From positions 43,762-107,761 of the forward strand of contig CACZZO010000010.1 in assembly GCA_902785755.1 (NCBI GenBank): 64,000 nucleotides of DNA, in the 5' to 3' direction. The stretch comes from an uncultured Bacteroidia bacterium (GTDB lineage: Bacteria > Bacteroidota > Bacteroidia > Bacteroidales > F082). This document shows positions 38,063-56,241 of this stretch, piece after piece (positions within the stretch are counted from its first letter, which is position 1; the number at the start of each line of letters is the position of its first letter). A program made the position numbers and the translations under genes. A model generated the notes under the pieces. That model made no database searches and was not told the origin of the DNA. It saw nothing but the letters and a program-made list of their open reading frames with translations.

Positions 38063-40006
38063 ATGGACAACGAAATCATAGACGAACTGCAAGACGACAT
38101 CTTCACGCAGAGCGAAGACCCGGCACCAACCACCGAAAACTATAACGACGACAGCATCGTACACCTTGAGGATATGGAGCACATACGCCGCCGCCCTGGA
38201 ATGTACATCGGCAAACTCGGTGATGGTGCCTCGCAAGACGATGGCATCTATGTGCTTATCAAAGAGGTGATTGACAACTCCATCGACGAGTTCACTTCGG
38301 GCTTCGGAAAGAAAATCGAGGTGACGGTTAATAAGGCGGAAAAGAAAGTCAGTATCCGCGACTATGGACGGGGCATCCCGCTTGGCAAGCTGAAGGAAGC
38401 CGTTTCGCAACTCAACACGGGCGCAAAATACGACAGCAAGGTGTTCCAAAAGTCGGTCGGCTTGAACGGTGTCGGTACTAAGGCCGTCAACGCGCTTTCG
38501 TCTTATTTCAAGGTGCAGGCCATTCGCGAGGGCAAGACGAGAATTGTGGAGTTTTCACAAGGTAAATTGGTGAGTGATTCTGGCATCATCCCTTCCGATG
38601 GTGATACAGGCACTCTGACCGAGTTCATCCCTGATTCCGCTCTGTTCGGCAACTACCACTATGTGGATGAATACATCGAAAAGCGCGTGTGGAACTACGC
38701 CTACCTTAACCGTGGTTTGAGTCTGATTTACAACGATAAACGCTATTATTCCAAGAACGGACTTTTAGACCTTTTGCAAAACAATATGGAAGGCGAAGGC
38801 CTCTACCCCATCATCCACATCAAGGATGGCGACTTTGAGGCTGCTTTCACCCATGTGAACGGCCAGTCGAGCGACTATTTCTATTCCTTCGTCAACGGAC
38901 AACACACCACCGAAGGCGGCACACATCAGTCGGCCTTCCGCGAGGGTTATGCCCGCGTGGTGCGCGAGTTCTACCAAAAGGAATACGAACCCGCCGACAT
39001 CCGCCAAGGCTTGATTTGTGCCTTGTGCGTCCGCATACAAGAGCCTGTGTTTGAGGCACAAACCAAGACCAAACTCGGCTCCACCCACCTCGCGCCCAAC
39101 AATCCCGACGGTACCAACGACAGCCCTTTCCTCAAAACCTACGTCTTCGACATCCTGAAACGCCACTTGGACAACTACCTGCACAAAAACCCTGAAACGG
39201 TCAGTGTTTTGCAGGCGAAAATCCAAGCCAACGAGAAGGAACGCAAGGAGATTGCCGGCATCAAGAAGGCAGCCCGCGAGAGTGCAAAAAAAGTCAGTCT
39301 GAACAACCGCAAGCTCCGCGACTGCCGCATCCACCTCAACACCAACCACGAGAAACGCTTAGAAAGCACCATCTTCATCACCGAGGGCGACTCCGCATCG
39401 GGAAGCATCACCAAGAGCCGCGACGTGCAGACCCAAGCCGTGTTCAGCCTGCGCGGTAAGCCGCTCAACTGCTTGGGAATGACCAAGAAAGTGTGCTACG
39501 AGAACGAGGAGTTCAACCTCTTGCAAGCCGCCTTGAACATCGACGAAGACATCGAAAACCTGCGCTACAACAACATCGTCATCGCCACCGATGCCGATGT
39601 GGACGGTATGCACATCCGCCTGCTGATGCTCACCTTCTTCCTCCAGTTCTATCCTGACCTTGTGCGCAACGGTCACGTTTATATCCTGCAAACGCCCTTG
39701 TTTCGTGTGCGCAACAAAAAGGAAACCTATTACTGCTACAGCGACGAGGAACGCACAGCCGCCAAGGAGAAATGCGGCAAGCAGGCCGAAATCACCCGAT
39801 TCAAAGGCTTGGGCGAAATCTCCCCTGACGAGTTCCGTGGCTTCATCGGCCCCAACATGCGCCTTGAACCTGTCATTCTTCGCTATGACTTTGGCATTAA
39901 GGAACTGCTGGAATACTACATGGGCAAGAACACCATGGAACGCCAAAAGTTCATTATCGACAATCTGCGGATTGAGGACAATTCCAACATTGCGGATGCA
40001 GTTTGA
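38063..40006 (+). CDS. parE: DNA topoisomerase IV subunit B
   Basis: 647 aa. GHKL ATPase motifs ([24 protein letters not shown]) and Toprim ([14 protein letters not shown]). The size is that of a Bacteroidota ParE rather than GyrB. Confidence 0.85.
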
Positions 40007-40062
40007 TTGATAACAACAGCATGGCACAATGGCAAAAGACACAAATCCAGCGCGATAACCGC

Positions 40063-41082
40063 ATGATGGCGGAGGCGCAAGCCCCAGTCATCATTTCCGC
40101 AAGCCGGAGCACGGACATTCCCGCTTTCTATGCCGATTGGTTCTTCCATCGGCTAAAGGTGGGTTATTCTGCTTGGACCAATCCTTTTAATGGTATGAAG
40201 AGTTTCGTTTCATACGACAAATGCCGCTTCATCGTGTTTTGGTCGAAATACCCGAAGCCGTTGCTTGGGCATTTGGATGAACTGAAGGAAAGGAATATCG
40301 GCTGCTACATCCAATACACGCTCAATGATTACAAGAAAGAAGGCTTGGAAAAGGGCGTTCCGCCTTTGGAGGAAAGAATTGACACCTTCAAAAGACTTGT
40401 GGACCAATTAGGCCAAGGGCGTGTGATTTGGCGTTTCGACCCGCTGATTCTGACCGACCAAATCGGCATGGACGACCTTTTGCGTAAAGTGGAAAACATC
40501 GGCGACCAACTGAAGGGTTACACGGAAAAACTCGTTTTCAGTTATGCCGACATCGCATTATATAAAAAGGTGAAAGCCAACCTTGAGAAAAGCCATGTGA
40601 ACTATACGGAATGGACGACCGCCCAAATGGAAGAATTTGCCCAAAGGCTTTCAGAACTCAACCAGAAATGGCATTATCAATTGGCCACCTGTGGCGAGAA
40701 GATTGACATTGCGCAATACGGCATCCAGCACAACCGCTGCGTTGATGATGACTTGATGATTCGTTTTGCCCAACACGACAAGGCCTTGATGGATTTCCTC
40801 GGCGTGGAGATAAAGGCCATAGAAAACTCGTTGTTTGGCACAGAACCGATTCCTACAAATGCCATCATGCTGTGTGAAACACAATACGCCATCAAGAAGA
40901 AAGACAACCGCGACAAAGGCCAGAGACTGTTCTGTGGCTGCATGGTGAGCAAGGACATTGGTGAATACAACACCTGCCCGCATTTGTGCGAGTATTGCTA
41001 TGCTAATGCGAGCAAGGAAAAAGCGCAAGAGAACTATAATAAACACAAAATGAATCCTTTGGGAGAAACGATAACGGGATAA
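40063..41082 (+). CDS. DUF1848-family protein (cysteine-rich C-terminus, possible Fe-S/metal site)
   Basis: The track ORF starts at TTG 40003, overlapping the parE stop. I favour ATG 40063 (MMAEAQAPVIISASRSTDIPAFYADWF), and ATG 40021 is also possible. C-terminal motif CGC...CPHLCEYCYAN. Confidence 0.7.
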   Translation: MMAEAQAPVIISASRSTDIPAFYADWFFHRLKVGYSAWTNPFNGMKSFVSYDKCRFIVFWSKYPKPLLGHLDELKERNIGCYIQYTLNDYKKEGLEKGVPPLEERIDTFKRLVDQLGQGRVIWRFDPLILTDQIGMDDLLRKVENIGDQLKGYTEKLVFSYADIALYKKVKANLEKSHVNYTEWTTAQMEEFAQRLSELNQKWHYQLATCGEKIDIAQYGIQHNRCVDDDLMIRFAQHDKALMDFLGVEIKAIENSLFGTEPIPTNAIMLCETQYAIKKKDNRDKGQRLFCGCMVSKDIGEYNTCPHLCEYCYANASKEKAQENYNKHKMNPLGETITG

Positions 41083-41087
41083 TAATC

Positions 41088-41095
41088 TATATTTG
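41088..41095 (+). promoter_or_regulatory. -7 box TATATTTG for the yhcG-type gene
   Basis: 20 nt upstream of ATG 41116 and 5 nt after the DUF1848 stop. Confidence 0.5.
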
Positions 41096-41115
41096 CAGGA
41101 CAAAACAAGCAAGAT

Positions 41116-42327
41116 ATGAGCAAGTTAATCAAAACGGACACAAGTTATGCTGAATGGATAAAAAGCGTTAGCTTGCGATTCAGGCAAAGCCAAATCAAGG
41201 CTGCCGTCAAGGTAAACAGCGAACTCATCCGGTTTTATTGGGAATTGGGACGAGATATAGTGGAAATGAAAGCAGAGGAGCGTTGGACGGAAAACTTTTG
41301 GGAAAACTTGAGCCGAGATTTGCAAACCTATTTGCCAGGTGTAAAAGGATTCTCCATTACCAATCTTCAATACACGCGCAGGTTTTATCTGCTATATTCA
41401 ATGAAAGCAACCGAACACCCCCAAGTTGGGGGTGCTCTGGAAGAAGCCATAGTCAATGGTGAACACCCTCAAGTTGGGGGTGTCTCAAAATCAGGCAGTT
41501 ATCGAAATAGCAACGAGACAGCGTCACTATTGACGGACCAAATGTGTTGCGTGCCGTGGGGACACCACAAACTCATCATTGACAAACTGATGGGACAGCC
41601 CAAAAAAGCCTTTTTCTATGTGCAGCAAACACTAAAATACAACTGGTCGCGTTCCGTGTTGCTCAATTTTCTTGACACAGACCTGTTTGAAAGGCAGGGA
41701 AAAGCCATTACCAACTTTGAAATAACGCTGCCTGATGCACATGGCGACTTAGCCCAACAATTGCTCAAAGACCCCTATTGCTTTGATTTTGTGCAACTCA
41801 CCGAAAGATACAACGAAAAAGAGTTGAAAGACGAATTGGTGAAAAACGTTGAGCATTTCCTGCTTGAGATGGGGAACGGCTTTGCTTATATGGGGCGTGA
41901 GTACCGTATGTTGGTAGGTGAAACGGAATTGTTTTGCGACATGCTGTTTTACAACACTTTCATGCATTGCTATGTGGTGGTAGAAGTGAAAACCGAGAAG
42001 TTCGACAATGCTTTCCTTGGGCAATTGAGCGGTTATGTTTCCAGTGCAAATCATCTGTTGCGCCGCCAAGGCGACAATCCGACCATTGGCTTGCTCATTT
42101 GCAAAAGCAAGGACAATGTGCTGGCCCGATATGCGCTTGAAGGCTACAGCCAGCCGTTGGGCATTTCAGAATACGAGCTTTCAAAACTCTACCCTGCCGA
42201 GTTCAAAGGCACATTGCCAAGCATTGAAGAAATTGAACGGGAATTGAAGGACAACCATGGGCGTGGCCACATACAAAACCACAGCCGAAATGCCAGAGGA
42301 ACTGCGGAAAGCCATGCCAGATATTGA
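41116..42327 (+). CDS. YhcG-type PD-(D/E)XK nuclease (DUF1016 family); C-terminal ~25 aa probably read-through into a relic
   Basis: 403 aa. N-terminal DUF1016-like helical domain. Nuclease core ...FCDMLFYNTFMHCYVVVEVKTEKF (D...E.K). The family-typical tail LPSIEEIERELKD is followed by an atypical HGRGHIQNHSRNARGTAESHARY. Own TATATTTG box at 41088-41095. Confidence 0.75.
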   Translation: MSKLIKTDTSYAEWIKSVSLRFRQSQIKAAVKVNSELIRFYWELGRDIVEMKAEERWTENFWENLSRDLQTYLPGVKGFSITNLQYTRRFYLLYSMKATEHPQVGGALEEAIVNGEHPQVGGVSKSGSYRNSNETASLLTDQMCCVPWGHHKLIIDKLMGQPKKAFFYVQQTLKYNWSRSVLLNFLDTDLFERQGKAITNFEITLPDAHGDLAQQLLKDPYCFDFVQLTERYNEKELKDELVKNVEHFLLEMGNGFAYMGREYRMLVGETELFCDMLFYNTFMHCYVVVEVKTEKFDNAFLGQLSGYVSSANHLLRRQGDNPTIGLLICKSKDNVLARYALEGYSQPLGISEYELSKLYPAEFKGTLPSIEEIERELKDNHGRGHIQNHSRNARGTAESHARY

Positions 42328-42349
42328 GGAACTGAAGAAACTGCTGTAA
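42257..42349 (+). pseudogene. relic 3' end of a second, divergent yhcG allele (30 codons, +1 frame relative to 41116-42327)
   Basis: My translation is MGVATYKTTAEMPEELRKAMPDIEELKKLL*. It aligns with GISEYELSKLYPAEFKGTLPSIEEIERELKD at the end of the intact gene. Confidence 0.45.
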
Positions 42350-42412
42350 AAGAGGAACTACTATGATGATAGAACAAAACACCAACTACGCCTACAAGCT
42401 GAAATACAAGCC

Positions 42413-42532
42413 GACACCTGCCCGCATCTGTGCGAGTATTGCTATGCCAATGCGAGTAAGGATGTGGCGGCAAGGAACTATAACTATTACAAAAATAACC
42501 CGTGGAGTGAAACATTAACGGGAAAACAATAA
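42413..42532 (+). pseudogene. relic 3' end of a second, divergent DUF1848 allele (39 codons + stop)
   Basis: My translation is DTCPHLCEYCYANASKDVAARNYNYYKNNPWSETLTGKQ*. The intact gene end (40969-41082) reads NTCPHLCEYCYANASKEKAQENYNKHKMNPLGETITG*. The nucleotide alignment is clear from ACACCTGCCCGCAT onward, and there is no homology upstream of it. Confidence 0.7.
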
Positions 42533-42567
42533 TTAAATAGGTTATTCTGCAAATTCATTATAAAATT

Positions 42568-43353
42568 ATGACTGACAAAAAGATTATACTTATAGCATTT
42601 GGTGTGACATTTACCACAATAGTGTTTTATGCCATCTGTTTTTGGGGAACGGAGGTTTCTAAAAATACTACCGATTGGGGAGCATTTGGTAATTATTTAG
42701 CAGTAGGGGTTAGCATTTTTTCAGTAGCACTCATTTACATAACTTACCGAGAACAAAGAAAAACAAATGAGATCACTCGTTCAGAGCATCATATTGCAAC
42801 AATGCTAAAAACATTAGATGCATTATCTATGAAAAACCAATCAAGAATAGAAACTACATATTTTAACATATTAGAGCATTTCAAAGTGCCTTTTTATGAT
42901 TTATCCGAATATGAATACGAAAAGATTGTAAAAGTCTGCATATTCTATTACTCTTTAGCATTGGGAGAAAAAGAGGACTCAATAAAACTTAATTATTATT
43001 TTCAATATCTAAACTTGTGTATAGACAATATCATTCATAACAAAACATTATCCAAAGAGCAGATACAGCTTCATATAACAGAATTGTCATGCGTATTAAC
43101 AGAAGATTCAAGATTGCTGTTTTTCTTCTGGTTGTTGATTAGTGATCGTATTGTATTAGATTCATATTACAAGTACGGATTATTCATTATTAATGACGAG
43201 GCTTCACCTCTTTTAAAGGATATAGTTAGCTACATTTGTTCGGGTAAATGTCCAACAAAAAGTCAGACTCGGAATTTTAATGGAGAGGACATAATACTTG
43301 ATGATTATTCCAAGGAAAAATTCTCTGATTCATATTCAAGAATGTTTAAATGA
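42568..43353 (+). CDS. 2-TM membrane protein resembling the putative-AbiC abortive-infection family
   Basis: 261 aa and AT-rich. Two N-terminal helices, the second of which (DWGAFGNYLAVGVSIFSVALIYITYREQRKTNE) follows the AbiC-like pattern ...G.fG.......s...IY.[ST][FY].EQ.K.N as I recall it. The stop overlaps the next start. Confidence 0.5.
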   Translation: MTDKKIILIAFGVTFTTIVFYAICFWGTEVSKNTTDWGAFGNYLAVGVSIFSVALIYITYREQRKTNEITRSEHHIATMLKTLDALSMKNQSRIETTYFNILEHFKVPFYDLSEYEYEKIVKVCIFYYSLALGEKEDSIKLNYYFQYLNLCIDNIIHNKTLSKEQIQLHITELSCVLTEDSRLLFFFWLLISDRIVLDSYYKYGLFIINDEASPLLKDIVSYICSGKCPTKSQTRNFNGEDIILDDYSKEKFSDSYSRMFK

Positions 43354-46300
43354 CACGAATTATGAAACCGAATTCAAATTCTAAACGTTTTTTTGCCACA
43401 TTAGTGGCACTGGTCCTTCCTGTTTTACTATTGGGACAGACGCAATACGACTACTATGACGATGGTGCAGTTGCTGGAGGTGTGGACCGAGCATTAAAGG
43501 GTATTATTATCATTGGAGGAATTATAGCCGTAGTCATTGTTCTTGCGCTGATACTATATGTTGTAGCAAAGGTTTATTTGTGGTTTAATCCAGTGGCAAA
43601 CCCTGAACACAAAAGAACTATGGCTGCAACAGAGAAGGAAAGAGAAATGACTGTCGGAAAAGGAAATACGAAAGAAAAGGATAATCTCTCTGTTACCTCA
43701 AATGAAGAAAAGCCTATTTCCAAGAATGCAGACACGGTAGAATCAGAAGTAGTGAACCCTGCTTTCCCTGTTTCGAGATTGAGCAATGATGAATTAGAAT
43801 GTATTAAAAGCCTTATTAACCCATCAAAAGAAGAAACCGAAAAGACAAAGACTGACTTAAACTGCAAATATGGTTTTGCTTCTTATACACAGGACTATAA
43901 AAAGTTTGTATGTCTTAGTTTTAGCTACTGCTACATTGCAGAAGGAACAAAAGCGGTTCTAAAAATCTTAGATGGTACCGAGACAATCTGTTCAAATGCA
44001 ATAGATAGCGACTATCAACAACAAGTTATTCTACCTGATTCTCTCTTATACATTGGTGACAATTCAATTAAATGTAAATCCCTAAAGGAGATAATTTTAC
44101 CACAGTCATTAAAATTTATTGGAGACTTCGCGTTTTTTGGATGTGAGAATCTTCAGAAAATCACTATACCTTATGGCGTAAGTCATATAGGTATTGCTGC
44201 CTTTTCTAATACAGGAATAAAGGAAATCGTTTGTAATTCGCCCATTTTTTCCATTAAAGATCACTGTCTTTTTGACGACAGTGGGCATAGGATGATAAAA
44301 TACTTTGGGTCGGCGGACAAAGTAATAGTTCCTTCTGACGTAAATGACATTAATGGTGCATTCGCTGGCTGTAAGGATATTGAATATATAACACTTCCAC
44401 AAAGATTGCCTATTATAGGCGACCGAACTTTTATGAATTGTACTCGACTGAAAGAGATAATAATACAAAGTGGGCTTCAAGAAATAGGCCGCTGTGCATT
44501 TATGCAATGTCAAAGTTTGGATCACATTGTTATTCCGGAAGGTGTAACAATAATTGAGGAATTCTGTTTTTATTATTGCCAAAATCTCCGTTATATTGTA
44601 TTACCTAGTACTATAGAACAAATTGGCTCAAAAAATGCAGAGTTTTCTAATTTTGAAATCTTTGATGACAATTGTATTTCATTGAGACATATTTTTATTC
44701 CAGAAGGAACGAAAGAAAAATTTAAAAAGTTCTTCTCTGAAAAGATACTGGTTGAAGGTACTCCAGAGGAGTACTTTGCTAGAGTTCAAGAGATTGAAAC
44801 GACAACTGTTCCCGACGAAAAATTGATCACTACCACAACCAAACAAGATATTCAGGAAGGATGGACGGATGAATTTGGATACCGTTATAGCGCCGATGGA
44901 AGAAGGCTGTTAAGTCGAACAGGATTCTTTCAAGTAGTAAAAGACTATCAAGTAAAAGAAGGTACTGTTGTAATATGTGATGGCGTTTTTAAAGACAGCT
45001 CATTGGAAACTATCGACCTTCCCGATTCAGTAAAAAAAATAGGTGACAGTACCTTTTCTGGTTGCAAGCATCTTAAACGCATTAAAATACCATCAACTAT
45101 AAACTATTTCGGGACAGGGGTTTTTAGTGGGTGTTCATCTCTCCAAAGCATTTCACTTCCTCCTTCATTAGAAATGATAAGGAAATATATGTTCAATGGT
45201 TGCTCATCGCTTAAAGAAATAAACATCCCACTTGGTGTAAAAGAAATCCATGAACGAGTTTTTTATAATTGTAGTTCTTTAAGAGAATTGATTATCCCAG
45301 AAGGTGTTGAATTTATAGGTGATAATGCATTTGGTGGATGTAGTAAAGTTCAAGAAATTACACTTCCAACTACACTAAAAGAAATAGAAGGTAATCCATT
45401 TGGGGATACAATTTCATCAATAGGAGAAAAACAGTATTCCGTGGTTTGTAAATCACCACATTTTTCCAATGAGAACGGAGCTTTATACACTATTGACAAA
45501 AAAACACTGGTTTCTTGTCTTTCTAGTGAGACCAGATTTGAAGTTGTCGAAGGGACAATTAAAATTGGTGATGGTGCATTTTATGGAAATAGTTGTTTGG
45601 AATCAATCGTATTACCTTCAACAATAGTCGAAGTTGGGAACAATGCTTTCTGTGGTTGTTATTTCACACGCATTCTTTTACCGAACTCCATTAAAAAAAT
45701 AGGAGATTTCGCCTTTGGTAATTGCGAATACCTTTCAAAAATAGTTATTCCAGAAGGACTTGAGTATTTGGGAAAGGAGGCGTTTTGGGGGTGTGAACGG
45801 ATTTCGGAACTTGTATTACCGAAGACTCTTTGTACAATTGAGAAAGAGGTTTTTAGGGGGTGTGATTCATTAAGAAGTATTACAATACTCAATCCTAATA
45901 TCATTATTGACGATGAAGCTTTTAGTTTTACAGAACTACAACAGATAGAGTTTGCTGGAATCCCTTCTGTAGTCAATGGAGACCCTTTTTGTTGGGCAGA
46001 TAATCTCAAAGAGATTATTGTACCTTGGGGCACCAAGAAACAGTTCTGCTTGCTATTTCCTTCAAAAAAAGATATCATCAAGACAAAAAGCAAGGCAAAA
46101 GATGCAAACAAACAAGAGCAATTAGATTTATCAACTGAAATAACCGAACAATACAAAGCTGAAATCGAAGCATGTAAAGATGATAGCGATTTCATTTATT
46201 CTAAAGACGGCAGAAAACTATTATCTTGTGAGCGCAAAGAGACTTTAGATGAGCCTATGCCTTTTGAAGACGAGAATGGTCGATGGGTACTAATTTATAA

Positions 46301-47015
46301 CAATCGTATAATGGGCTATGATGAATACAATTCAAGGATGGACCTTTGGAATGACGAATTCTACTACGAGGTAACACCAGGAACACAAATAATATGCGAC
46401 AAAGCTTTTTCGCGATGCGAAAGTTTAGGAGAAATTCGCATACCTGAATCTGTTAAAGCCATTGGAATACGTGCGTTTGAGGACTGCAAATCATTGAAAC
46501 GGTTTACCTTCCCATCGGAAATAAAGGTTGTTAAGGAAAATTGCTTTATAGTCTGTACCAGTTTAATATCTGTCAAACTTCCAGATTCCTTGGAAATAAT
46601 AGAGAAAGGTGCTTTTGGAGCTTGTAATAAACTAAATAAAATAGAATTTCCAGAAACAGTCAAAACCATCGGTTTTGCGGCTTTTCAAGGTTGTCCACTG
46701 GAAGAAATCAATTTACCTAAAAACTTGGAAGAAATTGAAGCAATGGCGTTCTGTTATACAAAAATCAAAGAATTAAAAATTCCTAAAGAGGTTAAGGTTA
46801 TAGGCAGAAAAGCATTTCTTGATTGCTTTAATTTAAAGACGATAGAATTTGAGGGTGTTGATGTTGAATGCGACAATGCGGCTTTTGTTATCTCTACTGA
46901 TGCCGAAGGACATTATCGGAAAATGCAGTTAGACACGATTTATGTTCCTAATGGTACTAAGTCTATATTTGCATCCAAGTTTCCTGATTATCAAGAAATA
47001 ATTATAGAGAGATGA
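43350..47015 (+). CDS. 1221-aa membrane-anchored BspA-type leucine-rich-repeat (LRR_5) protein
   Basis: Signal-like FATLVALVLPVLLLGQ, then one TM helix (IIIIGGIIAVVIVLALILYVVAKVYLWF) and a charged linker. At least 4 blocks of ~23-aa LRR_5 repeats follow (LKEIILPQSLKFIGDFAFFGCENLQKITIP...). There is no T9SS C-terminal domain. Confidence 0.8.
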   Translation: MTRIMKPNSNSKRFFATLVALVLPVLLLGQTQYDYYDDGAVAGGVDRALKGIIIIGGIIAVVIVLALILYVVAKVYLWFNPVANPEHKRTMAATEKEREMTVGKGNTKEKDNLSVTSNEEKPISKNADTVESEVVNPAFPVSRLSNDELECIKSLINPSKEETEKTKTDLNCKYGFASYTQDYKKFVCLSFSYCYIAEGTKAVLKILDGTETICSNAIDSDYQQQVILPDSLLYIGDNSIKCKSLKEIILPQSLKFIGDFAFFGCENLQKITIPYGVSHIGIAAFSNTGIKEIVCNSPIFSIKDHCLFDDSGHRMIKYFGSADKVIVPSDVNDINGAFAGCKDIEYITLPQRLPIIGDRTFMNCTRLKEIIIQSGLQEIGRCAFMQCQSLDHIVIPEGVTIIEEFCFYYCQNLRYIVLPSTIEQIGSKNAEFSNFEIFDDNCISLRHIFIPEGTKEKFKKFFSEKILVEGTPEEYFARVQEIETTTVPDEKLITTTTKQDIQEGWTDEFGYRYSADGRRLLSRTGFFQVVKDYQVKEGTVVICDGVFKDSSLETIDLPDSVKKIGDSTFSGCKHLKRIKIPSTINYFGTGVFSGCSSLQSISLPPSLEMIRKYMFNGCSSLKEINIPLGVKEIHERVFYNCSSLRELIIPEGVEFIGDNAFGGCSKVQEITLPTTLKEIEGNPFGDTISSIGEKQYSVVCKSPHFSNENGALYTIDKKTLVSCLSSETRFEVVEGTIKIGDGAFYGNSCLESIVLPSTIVEVGNNAFCGCYFTRILLPNSIKKIGDFAFGNCEYLSKIVIPEGLEYLGKEAFWGCERISELVLPKTLCTIEKEVFRGCDSLRSITILNPNIIIDDEAFSFTELQQIEFAGIPSVVNGDPFCWADNLKEIIVPWGTKKQFCLLFPSKKDIIKTKSKAKDANKQEQLDLSTEITEQYKAEIEACKDDSDFIYSKDGRKLLSCERKETLDEPMPFEDENGRWVLIYNNRIMGYDEYNSRMDLWNDEFYYEVTPGTQIICDKAFSRCESLGEIRIPESVKAIGIRAFEDCKSLKRFTFPSEIKVVKENCFIVCTSLISVKLPDSLEIIEKGAFGACNKLNKIEFPETVKTIGFAAFQGCPLEEINLPKNLEEIEAMAFCYTKIKELKIPKEVKVIGRKAFLDCFNLKTIEFEGVDVECDNAAFVISTDAEGHYRKMQLDTIYVPNGTKSIFASKFPDYQEIIIER

Positions 47016-47509: not shown

Positions 47510-48724
47510 ATGTCATCATCCAAACCAGATATGAAACCACGGAAGAAATCCATGAAAGTCATTATCATTTGTTTGACTATCATAGTCGTGCCTATCATAA
47601 TAAAAGCCATCTGGGTCGGCATCGCCACAAGGCATAACGGCGACTTTGAAAGCGAGAAGGCAGTCATCATGGCGCGGCGGGATTTTTTGATAGAGAAGGT
47701 GATGACCAGCCCGCAAAAGCTTATCGATGAAATGCCCGCCATCGTCGGGCCTCAGTTCCAAGGGGAATGGGCGTTGTATTCATGCTCGATGCTGTCGGCG
47801 GCGTTGGTGAATACCACGTTGATATACGATGAGGATAGGGAAGCGAACATTGCCCGTATCGATAGCCTCATCCAGATTGTCATGTCGCCAGAACTACGGG
47901 CTTACGACCGAGAGCGATGGGGCGAAGACCCGCTGAAAACGTTGGATGGCAAAGAGAGCCACGTCTCTTATCTCAGTCATTTGGCTTGGATGATTGGCGG
48001 TTACAAGCGCATCGGCGGAGGCGACAAATACGATGAGCTTTATCATCGGCTATGCGAGACCATGAACCGCCGCATCCTTGATAGTCCAAACATGAATCTG
48101 CCGACTTATCCGGGCGAGTGTGTGTATGTGCCGGATATGCTGGTGGCCATCGTGGCACTTTCGGTTTATTCTCAGCAGTATGAAGGCAAGTATTACTCAA
48201 CCGTTTACCAATGGCTTTCTGAGGCCAAGCAGCATTGGCTTGATAAGGACACCGGGATGCTCGCATCGTTCTTGCCTGACGATAAAGAAGGGATGTATGA
48301 GGAAGCTCCCATCAAAGGCTCTTACTCGGCGTTGAGTTGCTATTACTTGACCTTCGTTGATGAGGAGTTTGCCCGTGACCAGTATGAGAGGCTGAAGGCG
48401 AACTTCTTGCAGAAGCGGCCTATCACGGGCTTCAAGGAGTACCACGACAGAAGATGTTGGCTTGGGATGGATATCGATGCTGGTCCCATCGTGTGTAACC
48501 TTAGCCCAACGGGAACAGCCTTTGCCGTTGGTAGTGTGACCTATTTCGAGGATTGGGCTATAAGGAAAAAGCTTTTGAAGACGGGAGAACTTGCGGGAAC
48601 TACCTGGCGCAGTGGAGGCAAGAGCCATTATCTGCTTGCCGATGTGGCCTTGGTAGGTGAGGCTATCATGCTGGCCATGAGGACGGCAGTTGGATGGGAG
48701 TTTACAACAACTCCAACGGATTGA
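47510..48724 (+). CDS. hypothetical N-terminally membrane-anchored protein
   Basis: 404 aa. One TM helix (VIIICLTIIVVPIIIKAIWVGIA), then a helical-looking domain. No family recognised. A TAACTTTG box lies 22 nt upstream. Confidence 0.6.
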   Translation: MSSSKPDMKPRKKSMKVIIICLTIIVVPIIIKAIWVGIATRHNGDFESEKAVIMARRDFLIEKVMTSPQKLIDEMPAIVGPQFQGEWALYSCSMLSAALVNTTLIYDEDREANIARIDSLIQIVMSPELRAYDRERWGEDPLKTLDGKESHVSYLSHLAWMIGGYKRIGGGDKYDELYHRLCETMNRRILDSPNMNLPTYPGECVYVPDMLVAIVALSVYSQQYEGKYYSTVYQWLSEAKQHWLDKDTGMLASFLPDDKEGMYEEAPIKGSYSALSCYYLTFVDEEFARDQYERLKANFLQKRPITGFKEYHDRRCWLGMDIDAGPIVCNLSPTGTAFAVGSVTYFEDWAIRKKLLKTGELAGTTWRSGGKSHYLLADVALVGEAIMLAMRTAVGWEFTTTPTD

Positions 48725-50237: not shown

Positions 50238-51053
50238 ATGGAAAAGCAAAGCTACACTTACAAGTATCCCCGCCCCGCCGTGACCACAGACTGTGTGGTG
50301 TTCGGCTTCGACGGGCGCGACCTCAAAATCCTGCTCATCGAGCGCGGAATTGAGCCTTTCAAAGGCTGCTGGGCCTTCCCGGGCGGATTCCTCCAGATGG
50401 ACGAGACCGCCGAACAAGGCGCACTGCGCGAACTGAAAGAGGAAACAGGACTGGACTTGCGCTACATCAAACAGGTTGGGGCTTTCAGCGACGTGAACCG
50501 CGACCCGCGCTCCCGCGTCATCACCATCGCGTTCTACGCCTTGGCGAGGAAATCGGCGGTGCAAGGCGGCGACGATGCCGCACGTGCACAATGGTTTGCC
50601 CTCAACGACATACCGCACCTCGCTTTCGACCACGACTACATCCTGCGCAAGACCATGGACAAATTGAGGCACGACATCCATTTCGAGCCTATCGGATTCG
50701 GCCTTTTGGACGAACAATTCACCATCCCAGAGCTGCAACGCCTCTACGAAGCCATCCTCGGCGTACACTTCGACCGCCGCAACTTCCACAAGAAAATGCT
50801 GCAAACCGGCATCCTTGAAGAAGTGGATGACTTTGAAGAAGCCCCTCCCTCCTATTTTGGCGACCGCCGCGAGATGCGAAGCATGGACATCGGAGCCTTG
50901 TTTGGCGGCATGATGGCCTCCGAGCCGAAAGCCTCCTACGCTGCACGCGACGACGACAGCCGCTCGACCCGCAGATGGGGCACCAAATTCCGCTTCAACA
51001 AAAAACGCTACGACGAATTCAAGGAAGACAATAACTTTAAGTTGGAATTTTGA
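50238..51053 (+). CDS. Nudix hydrolase fold fused to an NrtR-like winged-helix domain (putative ADP-ribose-responsive regulator)
   Basis: 271 aa. Complete Nudix box GFLQMDETAEQGALRELKEETGL. The C-terminal DHDYILRKTMDKLRHDI...FTIPELQRLYEAILGVHFDRRNFHKKM resembles the NrtR DNA-binding domain. Confidence 0.7.
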   Translation: MEKQSYTYKYPRPAVTTDCVVFGFDGRDLKILLIERGIEPFKGCWAFPGGFLQMDETAEQGALRELKEETGLDLRYIKQVGAFSDVNRDPRSRVITIAFYALARKSAVQGGDDAARAQWFALNDIPHLAFDHDYILRKTMDKLRHDIHFEPIGFGLLDEQFTIPELQRLYEAILGVHFDRRNFHKKMLQTGILEEVDDFEEAPPSYFGDRREMRSMDIGALFGGMMASEPKASYAARDDDSRSTRRWGTKFRFNKKRYDEFKEDNNFKLEF

Positions 51054-51117
51054 TTAGTTTGGAGTTGAAAGTTGACAGTTAAAGGGCTGTTACACCGTGG
51101 CAGCCGACAATCCCGAT

Positions 51118-51176
51118 ATTTGAAATCCTGAAATCTTGAAATTTGAAATCCCGAAATTATTAAATATAAAATCTTA
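51118..51176 (+). repeat. tandem ~8-nt TGAAATC-type words upstream of the vWA-fusion gene
   Basis: TTTGAAATCCTGAAATCTTGAAATTTGAAATCCCGAAATTATTAAATATAAAATCTT. Confidence 0.8.
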
Positions 51177-51190
51177 AAAAACAAAAAGTT

Positions 51191-52285
51191 ATGGAAACAA
51201 AATCCACCTCAAAGACGCAGGTCTATAACCTGATTATCCTCGACAAGAGCGGCTCGATGGGCAGCATCGCCAACGCCGCCATCGCCGGATTCAACGAAAC
51301 CGTAGGCGGCATCCGCTCCGCCCAAGAACGCTTCAAGGACACGCAAGAGCATTTTGTCTCGCTGATGATTTTCTGCAATTGCGAGAAAACGTTGGTCTAC
51401 GACAAGGTACCCGTCGCCGAAGTCAAGGAACTGACAAGAAACGAATACCGTCCTTGCTGCGGAACGCCGCTGTATGACGCTATGGGATTGTCCATCAATG
51501 CCTTATACAACGACATCAAGGACAAGGAAGATGCCACCGCCGTGGTGACCGTCATCACCGACGGGCTTGAAAACGCATCGAAGGAATACAGCGGCGCGGC
51601 CATCAAAGCCCTCGTAGAGCGCATGAAGGACGAGGAAGGCTGGAACTTCGCCTACATCGGCACCAACCAAGACGTGCAGGCCACTTCCGCCTCGCTTTCC
51701 ATCGACAACCACATGGCCTTCGCCGACGACGATGCCGGAATGCGCGAGGCTTGGGCCAAAGAGCGCAAGTCGCGCACAATGATGTACAGCCGCCTCGAAG
51801 AAGAACGGGAAATGACTGCCGCCATGCCCAGTTTCGCCCGAAAACTGTTCCGCTCCAAGTCGAACCGCGAAAACCGCAACTATCGTGAAATGAGTGAGTT
51901 CAGCCATCGTGTTACGCCCGACAACATCAGAAGTCTCGGCAGAAACGAAATCTTCGTTTTCGGCAGCAACCTCGCTGGTGCTCACGCTGGCGGCGCGGCT
52001 CGAATTGCCCGAATGAACTTTGGAGCCATTTGGGGTCAAGGTGTTGGTTTGCAAGGCCAAAGCTATGCCATCCCCACGATGCAAGGTGGCGTGAACACCA
52101 TCAAGCCTTACGTGGACGAGTTCATCGCCTTCGCCTTGCAGCATCCCGAGATGACTTTCCTCGTCACCAAGATAGGCTGCGGCATCGCTGGCTTCACCCC
52201 TGCCGAGATTGCGCCGCTGTTTGCCGGTGCCGTCAATGTGGAAAACATTCATTTGCCGATGGATTTTTGGACGGAGTTGGTGTAA
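51191..52285 (+). CDS. vWA domain (intact MIDAS) fused to a ~125-aa domain of a small phage/bacterial family of unknown function
   Basis: 364 aa. MIDAS residues DKSGSM...GTPLYD...TDGLEN. The C-terminal IFVFGSNLAGAHAGGAARIA...GQSYAIPT...TKIGCGIAGFTPAEIAPLF matches a family I recall being named the A1S_2505 family phage non-structural protein. That name is from memory and unverified. Confidence 0.65.
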   Translation: METKSTSKTQVYNLIILDKSGSMGSIANAAIAGFNETVGGIRSAQERFKDTQEHFVSLMIFCNCEKTLVYDKVPVAEVKELTRNEYRPCCGTPLYDAMGLSINALYNDIKDKEDATAVVTVITDGLENASKEYSGAAIKALVERMKDEEGWNFAYIGTNQDVQATSASLSIDNHMAFADDDAGMREAWAKERKSRTMMYSRLEEEREMTAAMPSFARKLFRSKSNRENRNYREMSEFSHRVTPDNIRSLGRNEIFVFGSNLAGAHAGGAARIARMNFGAIWGQGVGLQGQSYAIPTMQGGVNTIKPYVDEFIAFALQHPEMTFLVTKIGCGIAGFTPAEIAPLFAGAVNVENIHLPMDFWTELV

Positions 52286-52287
52286 TT

Positions 52288-52320
52288 GGTTGAGAGTTTA
52301 GGGTTTAGAGTTTAGTGTTG
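52288..52320 (+). repeat. tandem 7-8-nt GTTTAGAG-type words upstream of the ARH gene
   Basis: GGTTGAGAGTTTAGGGTTTAGAGTTTAGTGTTG. The same word family occurs in reverse complement at 27505-27545. Confidence 0.75.
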
Positions 52321-52345
52321 AAATTCAAAATAGGAGATAATAATC

Positions 52346-53200
52346 ATGTTAGGAGCAATTATTGGAGATGCCGTTGGTTCGGTATATGAGTTCAACAACA
52401 TAAAAACTACAGAATTTCCGCTGTTTGGACCACGAAACAACTACACCGACGACAGCATCATGACCATAGCCGTGGCCGACTGGCTTTTGACCGACCCGCA
52501 GCATGGCATGGACACCTTGGAAGCCTCATTTTTAGGCTTCGCCAAGAAGTACCCTTGTCCTATGGGTGGCTATGGTGGTGGGTTCCATCGATGGCTGTTC
52601 CATCCCGAAGAGTTAGGTGATTATGGGAGTCGCGACTTCAAACTCGGGGCACGTCATCCTTACAATTCATTCGGCAACGGAGCCGCTATGCGTTGCAGCG
52701 CGAACGGCTGGATGTTCGACAGCTTGGAAGAAACGGAGCGTGTGGCTGGCCTTTCGGCAGCCATCACCCACAGCCATCCCGAGGGTATCAAAGGAGCGCA
52801 ATCAACGGCGGCAGCCATTTTCATGGCACGCAACGGCAAGAGCAAGGATGAGATAAGGGATTACATCTCAACGAAATACAGTTACAACCTCAACCGCACT
52901 TGCGACGAGATTCGTCCTGTCTATGACTGGGATTCTTCATGCCAAGGCACGGTTCCGGAAGCAATGGTGGCCTTTTTTGACAGCACCGATTTCGAGTCGG
53001 CCATCCGCCTCGCCGTCTCGTTGGGTGGCGACAGCGACACCCTTGCTTGCATCACTGGTGGCATCGCGGAGGCGTTCTACAAGGTGATTCCCAACGACAT
53101 CGCCTTGAAAATCTGGGCACTGCTCCCCGATGAATTCAAGGACATCTTGAAGAAGATGGAGGCTCAAACGAGCTATCAATTGCCGAACATTCTGAAATAA
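52346..53200 (+). CDS. ADP-ribosylglycohydrolase family protein
   Basis: 284 aa. N-terminal GAIIGDAVGSVYEF...TDDSIMT and C-terminal GGDSDTLACITGGIAEAFY are hallmark ARH/DraG motifs. Confidence 0.85.
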   Translation: MLGAIIGDAVGSVYEFNNIKTTEFPLFGPRNNYTDDSIMTIAVADWLLTDPQHGMDTLEASFLGFAKKYPCPMGGYGGGFHRWLFHPEELGDYGSRDFKLGARHPYNSFGNGAAMRCSANGWMFDSLEETERVAGLSAAITHSHPEGIKGAQSTAAAIFMARNGKSKDEIRDYISTKYSYNLNRTCDEIRPVYDWDSSCQGTVPEAMVAFFDSTDFESAIRLAVSLGGDSDTLACITGGIAEAFYKVIPNDIALKIWALLPDEFKDILKKMEAQTSYQLPNILK

Positions 53201-53325: not shown

Positions 53326-55320
53326 TTAACCCATTGTTGAAATCAATTGACTCAATGTTGTATCTGTATATGTCCTCCATATTCTCAATCGGATAGGCTT
53401 ATAATCATCAAAAAGTTGCTTGATAAACCCAATCTCAAAGACAAGTCTCAAATCATTAGGATTATTTTCTGGTTGACCTTCTTTGCGAGTGCCAACACGA
53501 GCTTTTTTAATCAGATAAAGGTCACGGACACCTTTGCCCTTGATGTAAGGCATAAAATAAAACAGGCAGTTGAGTTCAACTGTTGATGGAAACTTTTTAC
53601 CTGTGTAATAAATCTTTGCCGATTGGCTAAGGAATTGTTCAATATTGTCGGATTTAACGTTGCAAATCAAAACATTATTTGTGTTCCTTGTGCCTTCACT
53701 TAATCCATAATTAGAAAAGCTTTCACTAGCAACACTATTATCAACAATAGAACTTGGAAATTGTTGGAGAATATCGAGAAAATCCAGCTGCTTATATTGC
53801 AGCCTCTCTGTTTTCACATCGTTATTATTTCCCATATACAGGTCATAAAAAATCTCATCTAACTCCTTTTGATCTATTTCGATATCAAATTTCCCTTGCT
53901 CTATCGTTGATATTATTCTCTCTACAATACTCTCAACTCTTATACGCACATTTTTACTTGGTTGAATAAACGGGATTTTTTTTATATAATTAGCCGAGTT
54001 GTTTGTTGAGGGATTAATGGTATTAATTAATTCAGAACAAATAGCAGAATTGAAAAAACCCAAAAGATAATTTGTCCATGTTTCATCGTTCGGAAATACT
54101 CCAACAATTGATTGATCAAACAACCTTTCTTCTATAAGGGCACCCGTTAAACTTGACGATCGTATCATGGGAATTCCGATACCTTTTTTAAAATAATAAC
54201 CAGAATTTTGGAACCTGCATTTCTTGCTATTATGGTACTCCATCAATGCTTGAACCGACCAATCCATAAACCACCGATCAGGTTTTACATATCGAACATT
54301 TCCTCCCTTTACTATTGGCACGAAACATTGATGAGTTTCTATGCCCCTTGTTTTTTCCATTTCTGTTAATGCCGTATATCTAATATCCTCCTTTTTCACA
54401 CAAATATATTTCTTCGCATTTTTTGATGATTCATCAAGTGGATGTAAATACTTTTTGTCGTTTCCAGAATAAAAACCTGTTACACAACTTGCAATATTCC
54501 CGATTTTTAGTAATGTTTTATTATTAATAAGCCGTGTTAATTGTTTTGTTGAATTAAACATAAATGCAGCTCCGACTCCTTCATAAACTGCTTTTTGGGA
54601 AACAAATCGAGTAATTCCTTTGCTTCTGTTTCCCAAATCTTCTATGAAATTAAAACCTGTTCTAATAGTTATGTTATTATATAAATTCTCATGAAGGTCA
54701 GATGATTTTACAAGTGTGATAATACACAGATTTGCATAACCGAAATTAACTCCAGGAAAAAAAGATGATGGAAACAGGGCAAGCTCGCGTATTTTTGTAT
54801 TGGTTAGCAAGTATTTTCTAATTGCAATGTGTCTGTGCAATGACAAAAAAGTATCTGGAATAATGAAACTTAACTCACCGTTTTCTCTTAAACACCGAGT
54901 ACACGCATATAAAAACAAAGTGTAACTCTCTTTTATATATAAGTCTGAATATAATCTATGAAGTAATGCTTTTTTCTCCTCATCAATTCTGGCACCATAA
55001 GGTGGGTTCCCGATTATCTTGTCAAAAAGATGACTACAAGTTGTTATCTCTTTATCAATAAGAGTGTCTGTCTCCTTAATATAAATGTTGCTTTGCTGCT
55101 TATATTTTTCACGGAGTAATTCAACCGCTTTGGGATTTAATTCATAAATACTTATATTTGAAAAAGAAGATTTCTCTAGAATCTTGTCTACAAAGACCCC
55201 ATCACCTCCACATGGTTCTAATATAGAATCTTGTGGTTGAAGATTAAGCATATCTGTCATATAACTTAAAATTGGGTCTGATTTTGTATAATAGGCCTGA
55301 AAAGTCAGTTTCTCATTCAT
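53326..55320 (-). CDS. N6-adenine DNA methyltransferase (gamma class, Eco57I-like) with unassigned ~150-aa C-terminal extension
   Basis: 664 aa and AT-rich. Motif I EPCGGDGVFV, motif IV IGNPPYGA. The long TRD-like middle region and the C-terminal domain are unassigned. Confidence 0.8.
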   Translation of the reverse strand: MNEKLTFQAYYTKSDPILSYMTDMLNLQPQDSILEPCGGDGVFVDKILEKSSFSNISIYELNPKAVELLREKYKQQSNIYIKETDTLIDKEITTCSHLFDKIIGNPPYGARIDEEKKALLHRLYSDLYIKESYTLFLYACTRCLRENGELSFIIPDTFLSLHRHIAIRKYLLTNTKIRELALFPSSFFPGVNFGYANLCIITLVKSSDLHENLYNNITIRTGFNFIEDLGNRSKGITRFVSQKAVYEGVGAAFMFNSTKQLTRLINNKTLLKIGNIASCVTGFYSGNDKKYLHPLDESSKNAKKYICVKKEDIRYTALTEMEKTRGIETHQCFVPIVKGGNVRYVKPDRWFMDWSVQALMEYHNSKKCRFQNSGYYFKKGIGIPMIRSSSLTGALIEERLFDQSIVGVFPNDETWTNYLLGFFNSAICSELINTINPSTNNSANYIKKIPFIQPSKNVRIRVESIVERIISTIEQGKFDIEIDQKELDEIFYDLYMGNNNDVKTERLQYKQLDFLDILQQFPSSIVDNSVASESFSNYGLSEGTRNTNNVLICNVKSDNIEQFLSQSAKIYYTGKKFPSTVELNCLFYFMPYIKGKGVRDLYLIKKARVGTRKEGQPENNPNDLRLVFEIGFIKQLFDDYKPIRLRIWRTYTDTTLSQLISTMG

Positions 55321-55323
55321 AAA

Positions 55324-56241
55324 TCACCAAATAAGATAGTTTTGCAAATTGTTGTTAATTACCACATTTCTCATTTCTGTAGTGAAATCATTCAACCAAT
55401 CAATGTTATTAGAAATCCAAGTATGAATGTCAAATCCTGTAAACTGATGGATTTTTTCATATGAATCAATTCCACAAAAAGTCTCCCATACGCCCGAGTT
55501 TTGAAGTGTGGTCAAATAATGATTGTTCTCGGTTGATCGAACAAAAATCAAACATTTGTATTCTTCTGTTTCAATGTTTTTATAAATACTACCTACCAAT
55601 AAAAGTCTATTGGTGTTTCCCTTCTCATTAGACCCAAAGCCACTTTTGAAGTCAACAATGTATTTATTTGATCCATCAGTAAAATGCAAGTCGCATTCCA
55701 ATTGGATTTCTCCAGAAGTCACAAGATTCCACACTTTATCATAGTATCTTTTCAACCTATCTTTGTCTTGAACATCAATTCCTAATCCGTCAATATATGT
55801 ATTAATTTCAGTGGTCAAATTCTGTTTTACTTCAGAAAATAGAGGTGGTATGAATAGCCTTATATTGTTTAATGGAAAGCTAAAACAAAGCTTACAAAAC
55901 GGCTCCCATAGTTCACCAACTCTTCGTGAGAATGCCATATATTCATATTCCCAAATAGAATTTCTACCTTCAAACATAACCACATCACATGTATAGGTTA
56001 TCATTAGAACACTTTCCAAGATTTCTTCATTTGACCAATTCTCGTTTCTGGCTCTTTCTAAAAGAATTGAAACTATAGAATCTTTGCTTCTGATTATTGA
56101 TTTATTAAAAGCTGATGCCTTTTTCTTGTAATCGTTTGCTGAGAATTGTATTTCAAGTTCACTTAATATTTCCTTCGAACGATTTCTGAAATAACTAAGC
56201 AACTCATTTTTTCTATATCTCAAACCATTATCAATATCCAT
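55324..56241 (-). CDS. candidate type II restriction endonuclease (PD-(D/E)XK-like), partner of the methyltransferase
   Basis: 305 aa and AT-rich. It lies 3 nt upstream of the MTase on the same strand. Candidate catalytic pattern ...ECDLHF...YIVDFKSG (D...D.K). No family recognised. Confidence 0.5.
   Translation of the reverse strand: MDIDNGLRYRKNELLSYFRNRSKEILSELEIQFSANDYKKKASAFNKSIIRSKDSIVSILLERARNENWSNEEILESVLMITYTCDVVMFEGRNSIWEYEYMAFSRRVGELWEPFCKLCFSFPLNNIRLFIPPLFSEVKQNLTTEINTYIDGLGIDVQDKDRLKRYYDKVWNLVTSGEIQLECDLHFTDGSNKYIVDFKSGFGSNEKGNTNRLLLVGSIYKNIETEEYKCLIFVRSTENNHYLTTLQNSGVWETFCGIDSYEKIHQFTGFDIHTWISNNIDWLNDFTTEMRNVVINNNLQNYLIW

Follow-up and report, generated by a model that had tools for sequence, protein, structure and literature searches.

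The stretch of DNA analyzed here, 64,000 nucleotides of contig CACZZO010000010.1 from an uncultured Bacteroidia bacterium (below, the window), carries a 4.46-kb AT-rich cassette of two co-directional genes that is horizontally exchanged among Prevotellaceae of the rumen and gut. The first gene, gene 1, encodes a small protein with two transmembrane (TM) helices that we conclude, from profile comparisons, to be a divergent full-length member of the AbiC/P superfamily of abortive-infection (Abi) proteins, lying below the curated models. Gene 2, which follows directly, encodes a membrane-anchored protein of 1221 amino acids (aa) with leucine-rich repeats (LRRs) of the LRR_5 type. The reading that we tentatively favor, as possible rather than probable, is that the cassette is a mobile abortive-infection-type module in which an LRR sensor and an AbiC/P-like effector would act against phages or other invaders. 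It is preferred because gene 1 is kin to proven Abi proteins, the cassette is mobile and behaves like a unit, the topology signals of gene 2 predict a cytoplasmic LRR mass, and one clade of gene 1 is paired with a large soluble protein. A more specific version, namely, a bacterial innate-immune module with an LRR receptor on the inner membrane face, arrays swapped by recombination, and an AbiC/P-family effector encoded directly upstream, appears somewhat unlikely. In the literature searched, there was no paper on an AbiC-LRR pairing and none that names the Pfam family putAbiC.

Both open reading frames (ORFs) and the ATGA overlap of the gene 1 stop codon with the gene 2 start codon had been proposed in an earlier note on this DNA and are borne out by the reading of the ORFs (Table 1). 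The same −4 overlap is found in L008, L010 to L015, and L021 to L024 (L numbers denote the ∼60 loci examined, which were fetched via gene 1 homologs through genome and metagenome scans and contig look-ups). On near-identical public contigs, gene callers prefer the next ATG, at position 43362 (MKPNS...), 8 nt past the gene 1 stop, as the start of gene 2, so that translational coupling of the two genes is plausible but not certain. The AT richness of the pair, previously judged by eye, was measured as a GC content of 0.35 to 0.36 over 43 to 47 kb versus ∼0.48 to 0.49 in both flanks. These are genuine genes, since a 1221-codon ORF at 35% GC is far beyond chance, all segments of both genes are under purifying selection (ratios of nonsynonymous to synonymous substitution rates, dN/dS, of 0.06 to 0.5), and each has many homologs. 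No Bacteroidetes-type TTTG...TAnnTTTG promoter motif is present directly upstream of gene 1, and scans for sigma-70 promoters and terminators gave results near the shuffle expectation; the pair may therefore depend on read-through from upstream genes.

Horizontal exchange and pairing of the two genes

The edges of the cassette are marked by L013 and L024, two loci with otherwise unrelated flanks that in blastn comparisons share exactly positions 42548 to 47012 with the window. In all 16 loci measured, the GC content of the cassette (28 to 36%) is set against that of richer flanks (37 to 54%). The alleles are mosaic: between the window and L013, identity is 57% in gene 1, 96% in the anchor of gene 2, and 79% in its LRR mass, whereas the corresponding values for L023 are 89%, 72%, and 35%. 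The synonymous rate dS jumps abruptly along gene 2, indicating recombination tracts. Gene 1, the anchor, and the LRR modules thus recombine independently yet remain adjacent. An origin of the cassette from phages or plasmids was considered and rejected, as tblastn gave 0 matches in 50,697 phage records and 0 in 72,556 plasmids, with one remote match on viral contigs.

Every gene 1 locus examined has some kind of downstream partner. In ∼28 loci, with gene 1 identities of 41 to 100%, the partner is of type A, i.e., an anchor module like that of gene 2 followed by a variable C-terminal mass, encoded in the same orientation at a spacing of −4 to +197 bp, often with the 4-nt overlap; the adjacency evidence for the type A pair as a unit is strong. 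The type B partner (10 loci, gene 1 identity of 50 to 66%, spacing of 141 to 163 bp) is a soluble protein of ∼1130 aa from no known family, preceded by a small helix-turn-helix (HTH) gene. Type D partners (∼12 loci, 33 to 41% identity, spacing of −4 or more) are a 214-aa and a 605-aa protein with signal peptides in a PEGA-BACON-FGE_sulfatase operon, and in a single locus, L007 (37% identity, 14 bp), a Big_2 protein is encoded upstream and a secreted LRR_5 protein downstream.

Some of these partners deserve a closer description. The type B protein (L004, 9051-12482; L009, 10955-14338; L001, 8956-12290) starts with MKKIGYIYKYNPSEGMGILVFG... about 150 bp after gene 1 and has no Pfam family, no relative in the PDB, and no signal peptide; in L004, its last part is a segment rich in Cys followed by an extremely acidic tail. 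The small gene in front of it is of the HTH_3/26 type and is fused to gene 1 in L004. An ORF near the type B partner of L009, judged by eye, is presumably a tyrosine integrase-like gene, and an SLFN_AlbA_2 gene follows the type B pairs of L001 and L004. The type B clade fits a pattern of a constant membrane module with a variable cytoplasmic partner. In L077 (830-12709; also in L078 and L079), a gene 1 homolog of ∼39% identity stands inside a tightly packed co-directional operon. Genes for PEGA/CarboxypepD_reg, BACON-repeat, and FGE-sulfatase proteins precede it in that order, and it is followed by genes for a K-rich protein of 214 aa with a signal peptide and then for three proteins (605, 484, and 620 aa) without a family. 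This looks like an envelope operon.

The variety of partners is what would be expected if the two genes were independent cargo, with gene 1 a stand-alone AbiC/P-type defense and gene 2 a hitchhiker on mobilizable elements and in integration hotspots, without any sensor-effector link. In line with this, gene 1 clades have at least three or four distinct downstream partners, the alleles of the two genes recombine independently, and a gene 2-type gene with 259-aa, SLFN_AlbA_2, and HTH neighbors is carried without gene 1 on an element with Mob_Pre and AbiEii. We nevertheless regard co-carriage as quite doubtful. Same-orientation adjacency is kept down to 41% gene 1 identity across the type A loci, the shared segment starts 20 bp before gene 1 and stops at the gene 2 stop codon, the deviant GC content is common to both genes, and the gene 1-less copies inspected in detail, in a sample biased toward fragments, are all broken (L080 into three ORFs, L083 by a nonsense codon, and L084 by a frameshift). 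The L083 and L084 lesions look like decay or sequencing errors. The bias arises because the profile search from the gene 2 side returned short, broken ORFs only; a search with a single anchor sequence gave 6 fragments only.

Interrupted copies also occur among close relatives of the pair: L024 has gene 1 as two separate ORFs (8001-8787), gene 2 is present as 563 plus 613 aa in L008 (6006-9670), and the gene 2 linker has been lost by deletion in L081 (6001-8449). These interruptions could be decay or assembly errors.

The two proteins and their predicted topology

The two N-terminal hydrophobic helices of gene 1 that the earlier note had described are seen both by hydropathy (aa 4 to 27 and 38 to 59) and in the AlphaFold2 model (aa 3 to 24 and 34 to 89), and the second one terminates ...SVALIYITYREQRKTNE. 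Two motifs of the family are near-invariant: the TM helices are separated by S..TSDWGAFGNY, and the second helix is followed by IYITYREQR.TNE; the invariant columns are S31, D36, W37, G38, F40, G41, and Y43, and dN/dS in gene 1 is 0.16 to 0.17. The model (pLDDT of 78) is all-alpha, including the C-terminal domain. The family comprises 81 clusters at 90% identity, is restricted to metagenome-assembled genomes of Prevotellaceae and Bacteroidales of the rumen and gut, and an exhaustive profile search with it yielded 556 representatives at E ≤ 1e-3.

Kinship with AbiC and AbiP emerges through intermediates. Members of the Pfam family putAbiC (PF16872) account for 27 of the 80 distant full-length relatives found with the gene 1 family profile (best E value, 1.5e-21). 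In protein P0129, which aligns with gene 1 over its full length, the PF16872 model sits at aa 133 to 208; this alignment locates the domain in gene 1. The putAbiC-positive relatives retain the two-TM head (DWGxFGxY and YxTYxEQ) and a C-terminal Y.DT(Y/L).RL tail. In an hhalign comparison, the gene 1 family matched 20 putAbiC-positive proteins with 99.9% probability (E value of 7e-37 over 261 columns); these 20 were drawn from the profile matches of gene 1 itself, and only their Pfam label counts as independent evidence. When a profile was built from the 20 proteins only, gene 1 was its sole match among 260 ORFs of the window (E value of 6.6e-35, aa 3 to 194). Among the same 20 proteins, PADLOC models recognized AbiP in 9 (8e-11) and AbiC in 8 (3e-7).

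By itself, gene 1 has no match to PF16872 at E ≤ 0.1 and does not reach the gathering threshold of that family (22 bits), and putAbiC is equally missing from 28 close family members, even at E ≤ 1, and from five two-TM-head relatives from other phyla. Nothing significant was found for it in Pfam, NCBIfam, or PADLOC-DB v2 (the latter at E ≤ 0.1). Its only match among PHROGs is phrog_8999 (4e-9), a family of unknown function. Weak, subthreshold matches to SLATT_6 were seen in 2 of the 28 family members (best E value, 6.5e-4) and none in gene 1. The AlphaFold2 model has no significant structural neighbor (best E values of 0.15 in the PDB and 0.32 in BFVD) that would suggest an activity, and a PDB sequence search with the gene 1 family and the type B partner was empty. 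Because the curated thresholds are not reached, gene 1 is classed as a divergent superfamily member and not as a member of PF16872. The AbiC-like assignment made in the earlier note is thus upheld at the superfamily level, through profiles, while the PF16872 search proposed there gave no match. That note had recognized the AbiC-like layout at the end of the second TM helix; the Pfam domain maps further downstream instead (Table 1), although the motifs of the two-TM head are indeed shared with putAbiC-positive proteins.

Remote relatives that share with gene 1 only the DWG.FG motif of the two-TM head stand alone in Marinifilaceae, Salinimonas, and Pseudoalteromonas (L018, 4349-13947; L019, 6665-8752; L020). 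Judged by eye, we take their neighbors to be SIR2-like, TIR-like (FFSFHYQD...), UvrD-like, and integrase genes, in surroundings that resemble defense islands or prophages.

For gene 2, the LRR_5 assignment was confirmed by Pfam (PF13306; 1e-164, 539.8 bits, 8 stretches). The layout proposed earlier, a signal-like segment, an acidic stretch, a TM helix, a K/R/E-rich linker, and LRR blocks, also stands, with 21 recognizable LRR units of 22 to 23 aa in about five arrays (nt 44082-44654, 45003-45416, 45597-45869, and 46425-46832). Across the partners, the N-terminal module has the consensus [G/A/S]|Q, then a net-acidic peptide of 21 to 22 aa, Q(T/S/R)QYDY(Y/M)DD.AVAGG.DRAL.G, then a TM helix of 22 to 30 aa, and then YWFNP.A.PEYKR. 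In nine diverse partners, the ecto-peptide, which has a net charge of −1 to −4 and the lowest dN/dS (0.06), is invariant at Q30, Q32, Y33, D34, Y35, D37, G43, G44, A48, and G51. In Bacteroidetes, glutamine at position +1 is a feature of signal peptidase I substrates (the Q-rule; PMC5837995), and the Q at position +1 of the predicted gene 2 signal peptide agrees with it. The 40 aa that follow the TM helix have a net charge of +2 in the window and of 0 to +4 in 11 of 12 partners, and the linker contains 17 K and R and 20 D and E residues in 115 aa.

By standard sequence rules, this charge bias around the TM helix, together with a cleaved signal peptide, predicts a type I membrane protein with its N terminus outside and its C terminus inside, whose linker and LRRs would all be cytoplasmic; the positive-inside pattern pointed out in the earlier note is seen across the partners. 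The absence of a type IX secretion system (T9SS) C-terminal domain (CTD), likewise claimed there, agrees with the lack of a Por_Secre_tail match at E ≤ 0.1, and the predicted cleavage site has no lipobox Cys. Gene 2 is therefore left without any known path to the cell surface. Slippage at homopolymers in the A-rich linker was also considered as a source of phase variation and rejected, there being no run of at least six A in this linker in the window.

Table 1. Features of the two-gene cassette in the window
Feature	Position	Strand	Basis
Cassette left edge, 20-bp leader before the gene 1 ATG	42548..42567	+	Start of blastn homology to L013 (81%) and L024 (92%)
Gene 1, 261-aa two-TM protein, divergent full-length putAbiC/AbiC/P superfamily member	42568..43353	+	ORF, profile links
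Gene 1 TM helix 1, aa 4-27	42577..42648	+	Hydropathy; model helix 3-24
Gene 1 short loop, predicted extracytoplasmic, near-invariant S..T(S/T)DWGAFGNY, aa 28-43	42649..42696	+	Alignment; net charge −1
Gene 1 TM helix 2, aa 44-60, ends IYITY then REQRKTNE	42697..42747	+	Hydropathy, alignment; model helix 34-89 runs into the cytoplasm
Gene 1 region matching the 80-position Pfam putAbiC domain, aa ∼141-206	42988..43185	+	P0129 alignment
ATGA stop/start overlap of gene 1 and gene 2	43350..43353	+	ORF reading
Gene 2, 1221-aa membrane-anchored LRR_5 protein	43350..47015	+	ORF, Pfam LRR_5 (1e-164)
Gene 2 Sec-type signal peptide, aa 1-29, predicted cleavage before Q30	43350..43436	+	Basic n-region, h-region, [G/A/S]|Q in all type A partners
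Gene 2 conserved 22-aa acidic ecto-peptide QTQYDYYDDGAVAGGVDRALKG, aa 30-51	43437..43502	+	Alignment
Gene 2 stop-transfer TM helix and YLWFNP juxtamembrane motif, aa 52-80	43503..43589	+	Hydropathy, alignments
Gene 2 K/R/E-rich linker, aa 81-200, predicted cytoplasmic	43590..43949	+	Charge, composition
Gene 2 LRR_5 mass, with cap/linker segments between arrays	43950..47012	+	Repeat count, Pfam
Cassette right edge, gene 2 stop codon	47012..47015	+	L013 and L024 homology ends at 47012

A cytoplasmic LRR mass is not what is usually associated with these repeats, and the pair could instead be an envelope or surface module, a simpler alternative already raised in the earlier note. Gene 2 would then be a BspA-type LRR protein at or beyond the inner membrane, with a role in adhesion, in the architecture of the envelope, or in contacts between cells, gene 1 would be an accessory for its insertion, anchoring, or signaling, and the variability of the cassette would represent surface or antigenic variation, not immunity. 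The Sec signal peptide that obeys the Q-rule is compatible with this, and LRR_5 and the Lcl_C/DUF1566-like domain carried by most type A partners are usually found in exported, extracellular proteins. The best NCBIfam match of gene 2 is the HupY/LrrG adhesin model NF047961, with 225.4 bits against a cut-off of 1250, a repeat-level similarity only. Clades of gene 1 at 37 to 41% identity belong to tightly packed envelope-type operons, either between Big_2 and secreted LRR_5 proteins or among PEGA, BACON, FGE-sulfatase, and signal-peptide proteins. In L084, a NusG/UpxY-like gene stands in the place of gene 1; such genes typically head surface-polysaccharide loci in Bacteroides. Nonetheless, the stop-transfer helix of 22 to 30 residues after a cleaved signal peptide, with its acidic N-flank and mostly basic C-flank, predicts an inward-facing C terminus; gene 2 has neither the CTD nor the Cys needed for a known outer-membrane route; gene 1 is homologous to proven abortive-infection proteins; and one of its clades is paired with a large soluble protein that lacks a signal peptide. 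Taken together, an envelope role is unlikely.

A possible defense role and the genomic surroundings

If the cassette is a defense module, it might work as follows. Gene 1 would form a two-TM hairpin with its N terminus inside, a periplasmic DWGAFGNY loop, and an all-helical cytoplasmic domain of ∼200 aa. Gene 2 would be inserted by the Sec pathway and lose its signal peptide before Q30, leaving the 22-aa acidic peptide outside, one TM helix in the membrane, and ∼1000 aa of LRR_5 solenoids suspended by the flexible K/E-rich linker beneath the cytoplasmic face. Its exchangeable arrays would bind an invader protein that arrives or accumulates at the membrane, and the signal would be relayed, presumably by physical interaction, to the AbiC/P-like partner in the same membrane. 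Gene 1 could then block infection either by depolarizing the membrane, as demonstrated for PdpSau, or by binding nucleic acids and blocking replication or transcription switching, as demonstrated for AbiP.

Several findings weigh against this proposal. The curated-model and structural searches with gene 1 described above were negative, and gene 2 matches no PADLOC system model, its only hit in PADLOC-DB v2 being PDC-M11B at an E value of 0.012. AbiC and AbiP function as single genes and, by this precedent, need no partner. The extracellular habit of LRR_5 proteins and the presence of the Lcl_C/DUF1566-like domain in many type A partners sit uneasily with a cytoplasmic LRR mass, and some gene 1 clades are housed in envelope-type operons. 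Diversifying selection on the LRRs is unsupported at the segment level (dN/dS of 0.12 to 0.35); the LRR variation arises through recombination instead. Nor is the pairing obligate: partner classes other than type A exist, and anchor-bearing ORFs without a gene 1 relative are found in L082 and L086 in addition to L080, L083, and L084. The conserved neighborhood expected in the earlier note is accordingly real for the ∼28 type A loci, with exact cassette boundaries, but does not extend to all homologs of either gene. Finally, in a PADLOC scan of 126 pooled neighbors, run with no background control, the matches listed were redundant ones to the candidate families PDC-S01 and PDC-S02, with 3 occurrences each.

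Both of these families are represented in the window. The gene order there is parE/gyrB-like (38063-40006), DUF1848, a YhcG PD-(D/E)xK nuclease, gene 1, gene 2, a 404-aa TM protein, AAA_14/DUF4143, NUDIX-NrtR, a 364-aa protein, ADP-ribosylglycohydrolase, and an AT-rich Eco57I-type methylase with a 305-aa ORF, in agreement with the nucleases, ATPases, and restriction-modification genes reported earlier for this region. YhcG corresponds to PDC-S02 and AAA_14/DUF4143 to PDC-S01, which are candidate families and not proven systems, and DUF1848 matches a DRT-associated PADLOC model. As support for a defense context, the candidate families near the pair are weak.

The immediate upstream region has a composite history. 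A stretch of ∼117 bp (42414-42530), which encodes ...TCPHLCEYCYANASK..., is a second copy of the 3' end of the DUF1848 gene (40003-41082), and positions 41087 to 42413 are absent from the close relatives L022, L023, and L063. The YhcG/DUF1016 nuclease gene is therefore seen as having been inserted separately, bringing the DUF1848 terminus with it or recreating it, so that in the ancestral layout gene 1 would have followed DUF1848 after ∼35 bp. Downstream, L069 to L072 have a 414-aa gene and then rpsO-pnp, not AAA_14 and the genes beyond it. This difference, together with the YhcG insertion, points to an integration hotspot.

Directly downstream of the cassette, the 404-aa protein (47510-48724) has a single TM helix, at its N terminus, and falls into no family of Pfam, NCBIfam, PADLOC, or PHROGs; the 414-aa gene occupies the same place in L069 to L072. 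Because the DNA homology to L013 and L024 stops short of the 404-aa gene, this gene is part of the host context rather than of the cassette. Farther on (50238-53200), the NUDIX-NrtR regulator, the 364-aa protein of no family, and the ADP-ribosylglycohydrolase are associated with NAD/ADP-ribose metabolism. Since NUDIX and 364-aa genes lie upstream of DUF1848 in L008 (671-2826), this region has been rearranged between relatives. A second AT-rich island (53326-56241, minus strand; GC content of 0.33) encodes a 664-aa Eco57I/N6_Mtase-type protein and the 305-aa ORF, for which Pfam has no family; the island resembles a type IIG-like restriction-modification module gained by horizontal transfer. The tRNA-Tyr(GTA) (24182-24265) and tRNA-Arg(TCT) (24825-24900) genes lie ∼18 kb upstream of the cassette and show no apparent connection with it.

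Elsewhere, genes near pair-related loci include AbiEii, Mob_Pre, HTH_17, VapE, and SLFN_AlbA_2. A recurrent block consists of an anchor-LRR gene, a 259- or 277-aa protein, a 555- to 567-aa SLFN_AlbA_2(+HATPase_c_4) protein, and an HTH_3 gene (L084, 1-11831; L010, L011, and L015, 13688-16192; L073, 7960-10331), and its downstream part follows the pair in L010, L011, L015, and L073. In L084, this block, with the NusG/UpxY-like gene in place of gene 1, rides on an element that also carries genes for AbiEii, an excisionase-like HTH_17 protein, and a Mob_Pre relaxase.

Such surroundings bring to mind a function for mobile elements themselves other than phage defense, such as entry exclusion, maintenance (addiction), or competition between elements: the tethered, cytoplasmic LRR protein would sense incoming transfer proteins, and the two-TM protein would block entry or kill the cell. 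Relaxase, excisionase, integrase, and VapE/Bro-N genes adjoin cassettes or related blocks, and the cassettes are AT-rich, mosaic, and missing from the phage and plasmid collections. On the other hand, the pair has no adjacent mobility genes in the window or in L013 to L015, and the Pfam, NCBIfam, and PADLOC searches gave no match to a known exclusion protein. Such a function is very unlikely.

Comparison with known systems

Gene 2 shares with the BspA-type LRR_5 proteins (Tannerella BspA, HupY/LrrG, and the BspA-like proteins of Trichomonas) the 22- to 23-aa repeat type and the multiple arrays. It differs from them in its signal peptide, ecto-peptide, and stop-transfer helix, in the absence of a T9SS CTD, a lipobox, and Ig-like domains, and in its predicted cytoplasmic location, and it fails the defining features of a surface adhesin, having neither a T9SS CTD nor a lipoprotein signal. 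Should the LRR mass face outward after all, the cassette would represent a novel type of envelope-protein locus, mobile, recombining, and unusually anchored. If instead it were a cytoplasmic sensor, BspA-type repeats would not be confined to adhesins, and pattern recognition by LRRs, a hallmark of animal and plant immunity, would extend to bacterial antiviral defense. The anchor itself may be likened to the M13 procoat protein, which inserts as a helical hairpin with an acidic translocated loop between two hydrophobic segments and a basic region inside; this is a topological analogy without homology, and the cytoplasmic part predicted for gene 2 exceeds 1100 aa.

AbiC and AbiP were among the earliest abortive-infection genes discovered; they have two TM helices and one, respectively, and are grouped as AbiC/P, with no known activity and no structural analog of known function (PMC13064643). 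AbiP requires its TM anchor, binds RNA and single-stranded DNA, and is triggered by a phage major tail protein (PMC13064643), and during infection the AbiP-like PdpSau of Staphylococcus aureus changes both the potential and the permeability of the membrane (PMC10127798). Gene 1 resembles these proteins and putAbiC in its N-terminal anchor (with two TM helices, as in AbiC), its DWGxFGxY loop and YxTYxEQ motif, its helical domain containing the putAbiC region, its Y.DT(Y/L).RL tail, and, again, the lack of a structural analog of known function. In contrast to them, it falls below the Pfam and PADLOC models, is specific to Bacteroidales, is encoded together with a large dedicated partner, and is known here from sequence alone. 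An AbiC/P branch firmly tied to an exchangeable LRR protein would offer a way to learn how AbiC/P proteins are triggered, in rumen and gut Prevotellaceae that are abundant and poorly tractable and whose phage-defense repertoire is largely uncharted.

Systems that combine a small TM effector with a large sensor are represented by the 2TM/SLATT effectors of systems similar to CBASS (cyclic oligonucleotide-based antiphage signaling system), and repeat-domain sensors by the Avs and bNACHT proteins, which resemble NOD-like receptors (NLRs). The cassette differs from them in having neither a nucleotide-signaling enzyme nor a STAND NTPase and in that its candidate sensor would be membrane-tethered and built of LRR_5 repeats. 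By analogy, it may share with them a constant membrane module joined to an exchangeable repeat module for specificity, in a mobile AT-rich cassette. If true, it would be the first LRR-based antiphage system, with the first defined sensor partner for an AbiC/P protein, and a prokaryotic counterpart of the LRR logic of Toll-like receptors and NLRs.

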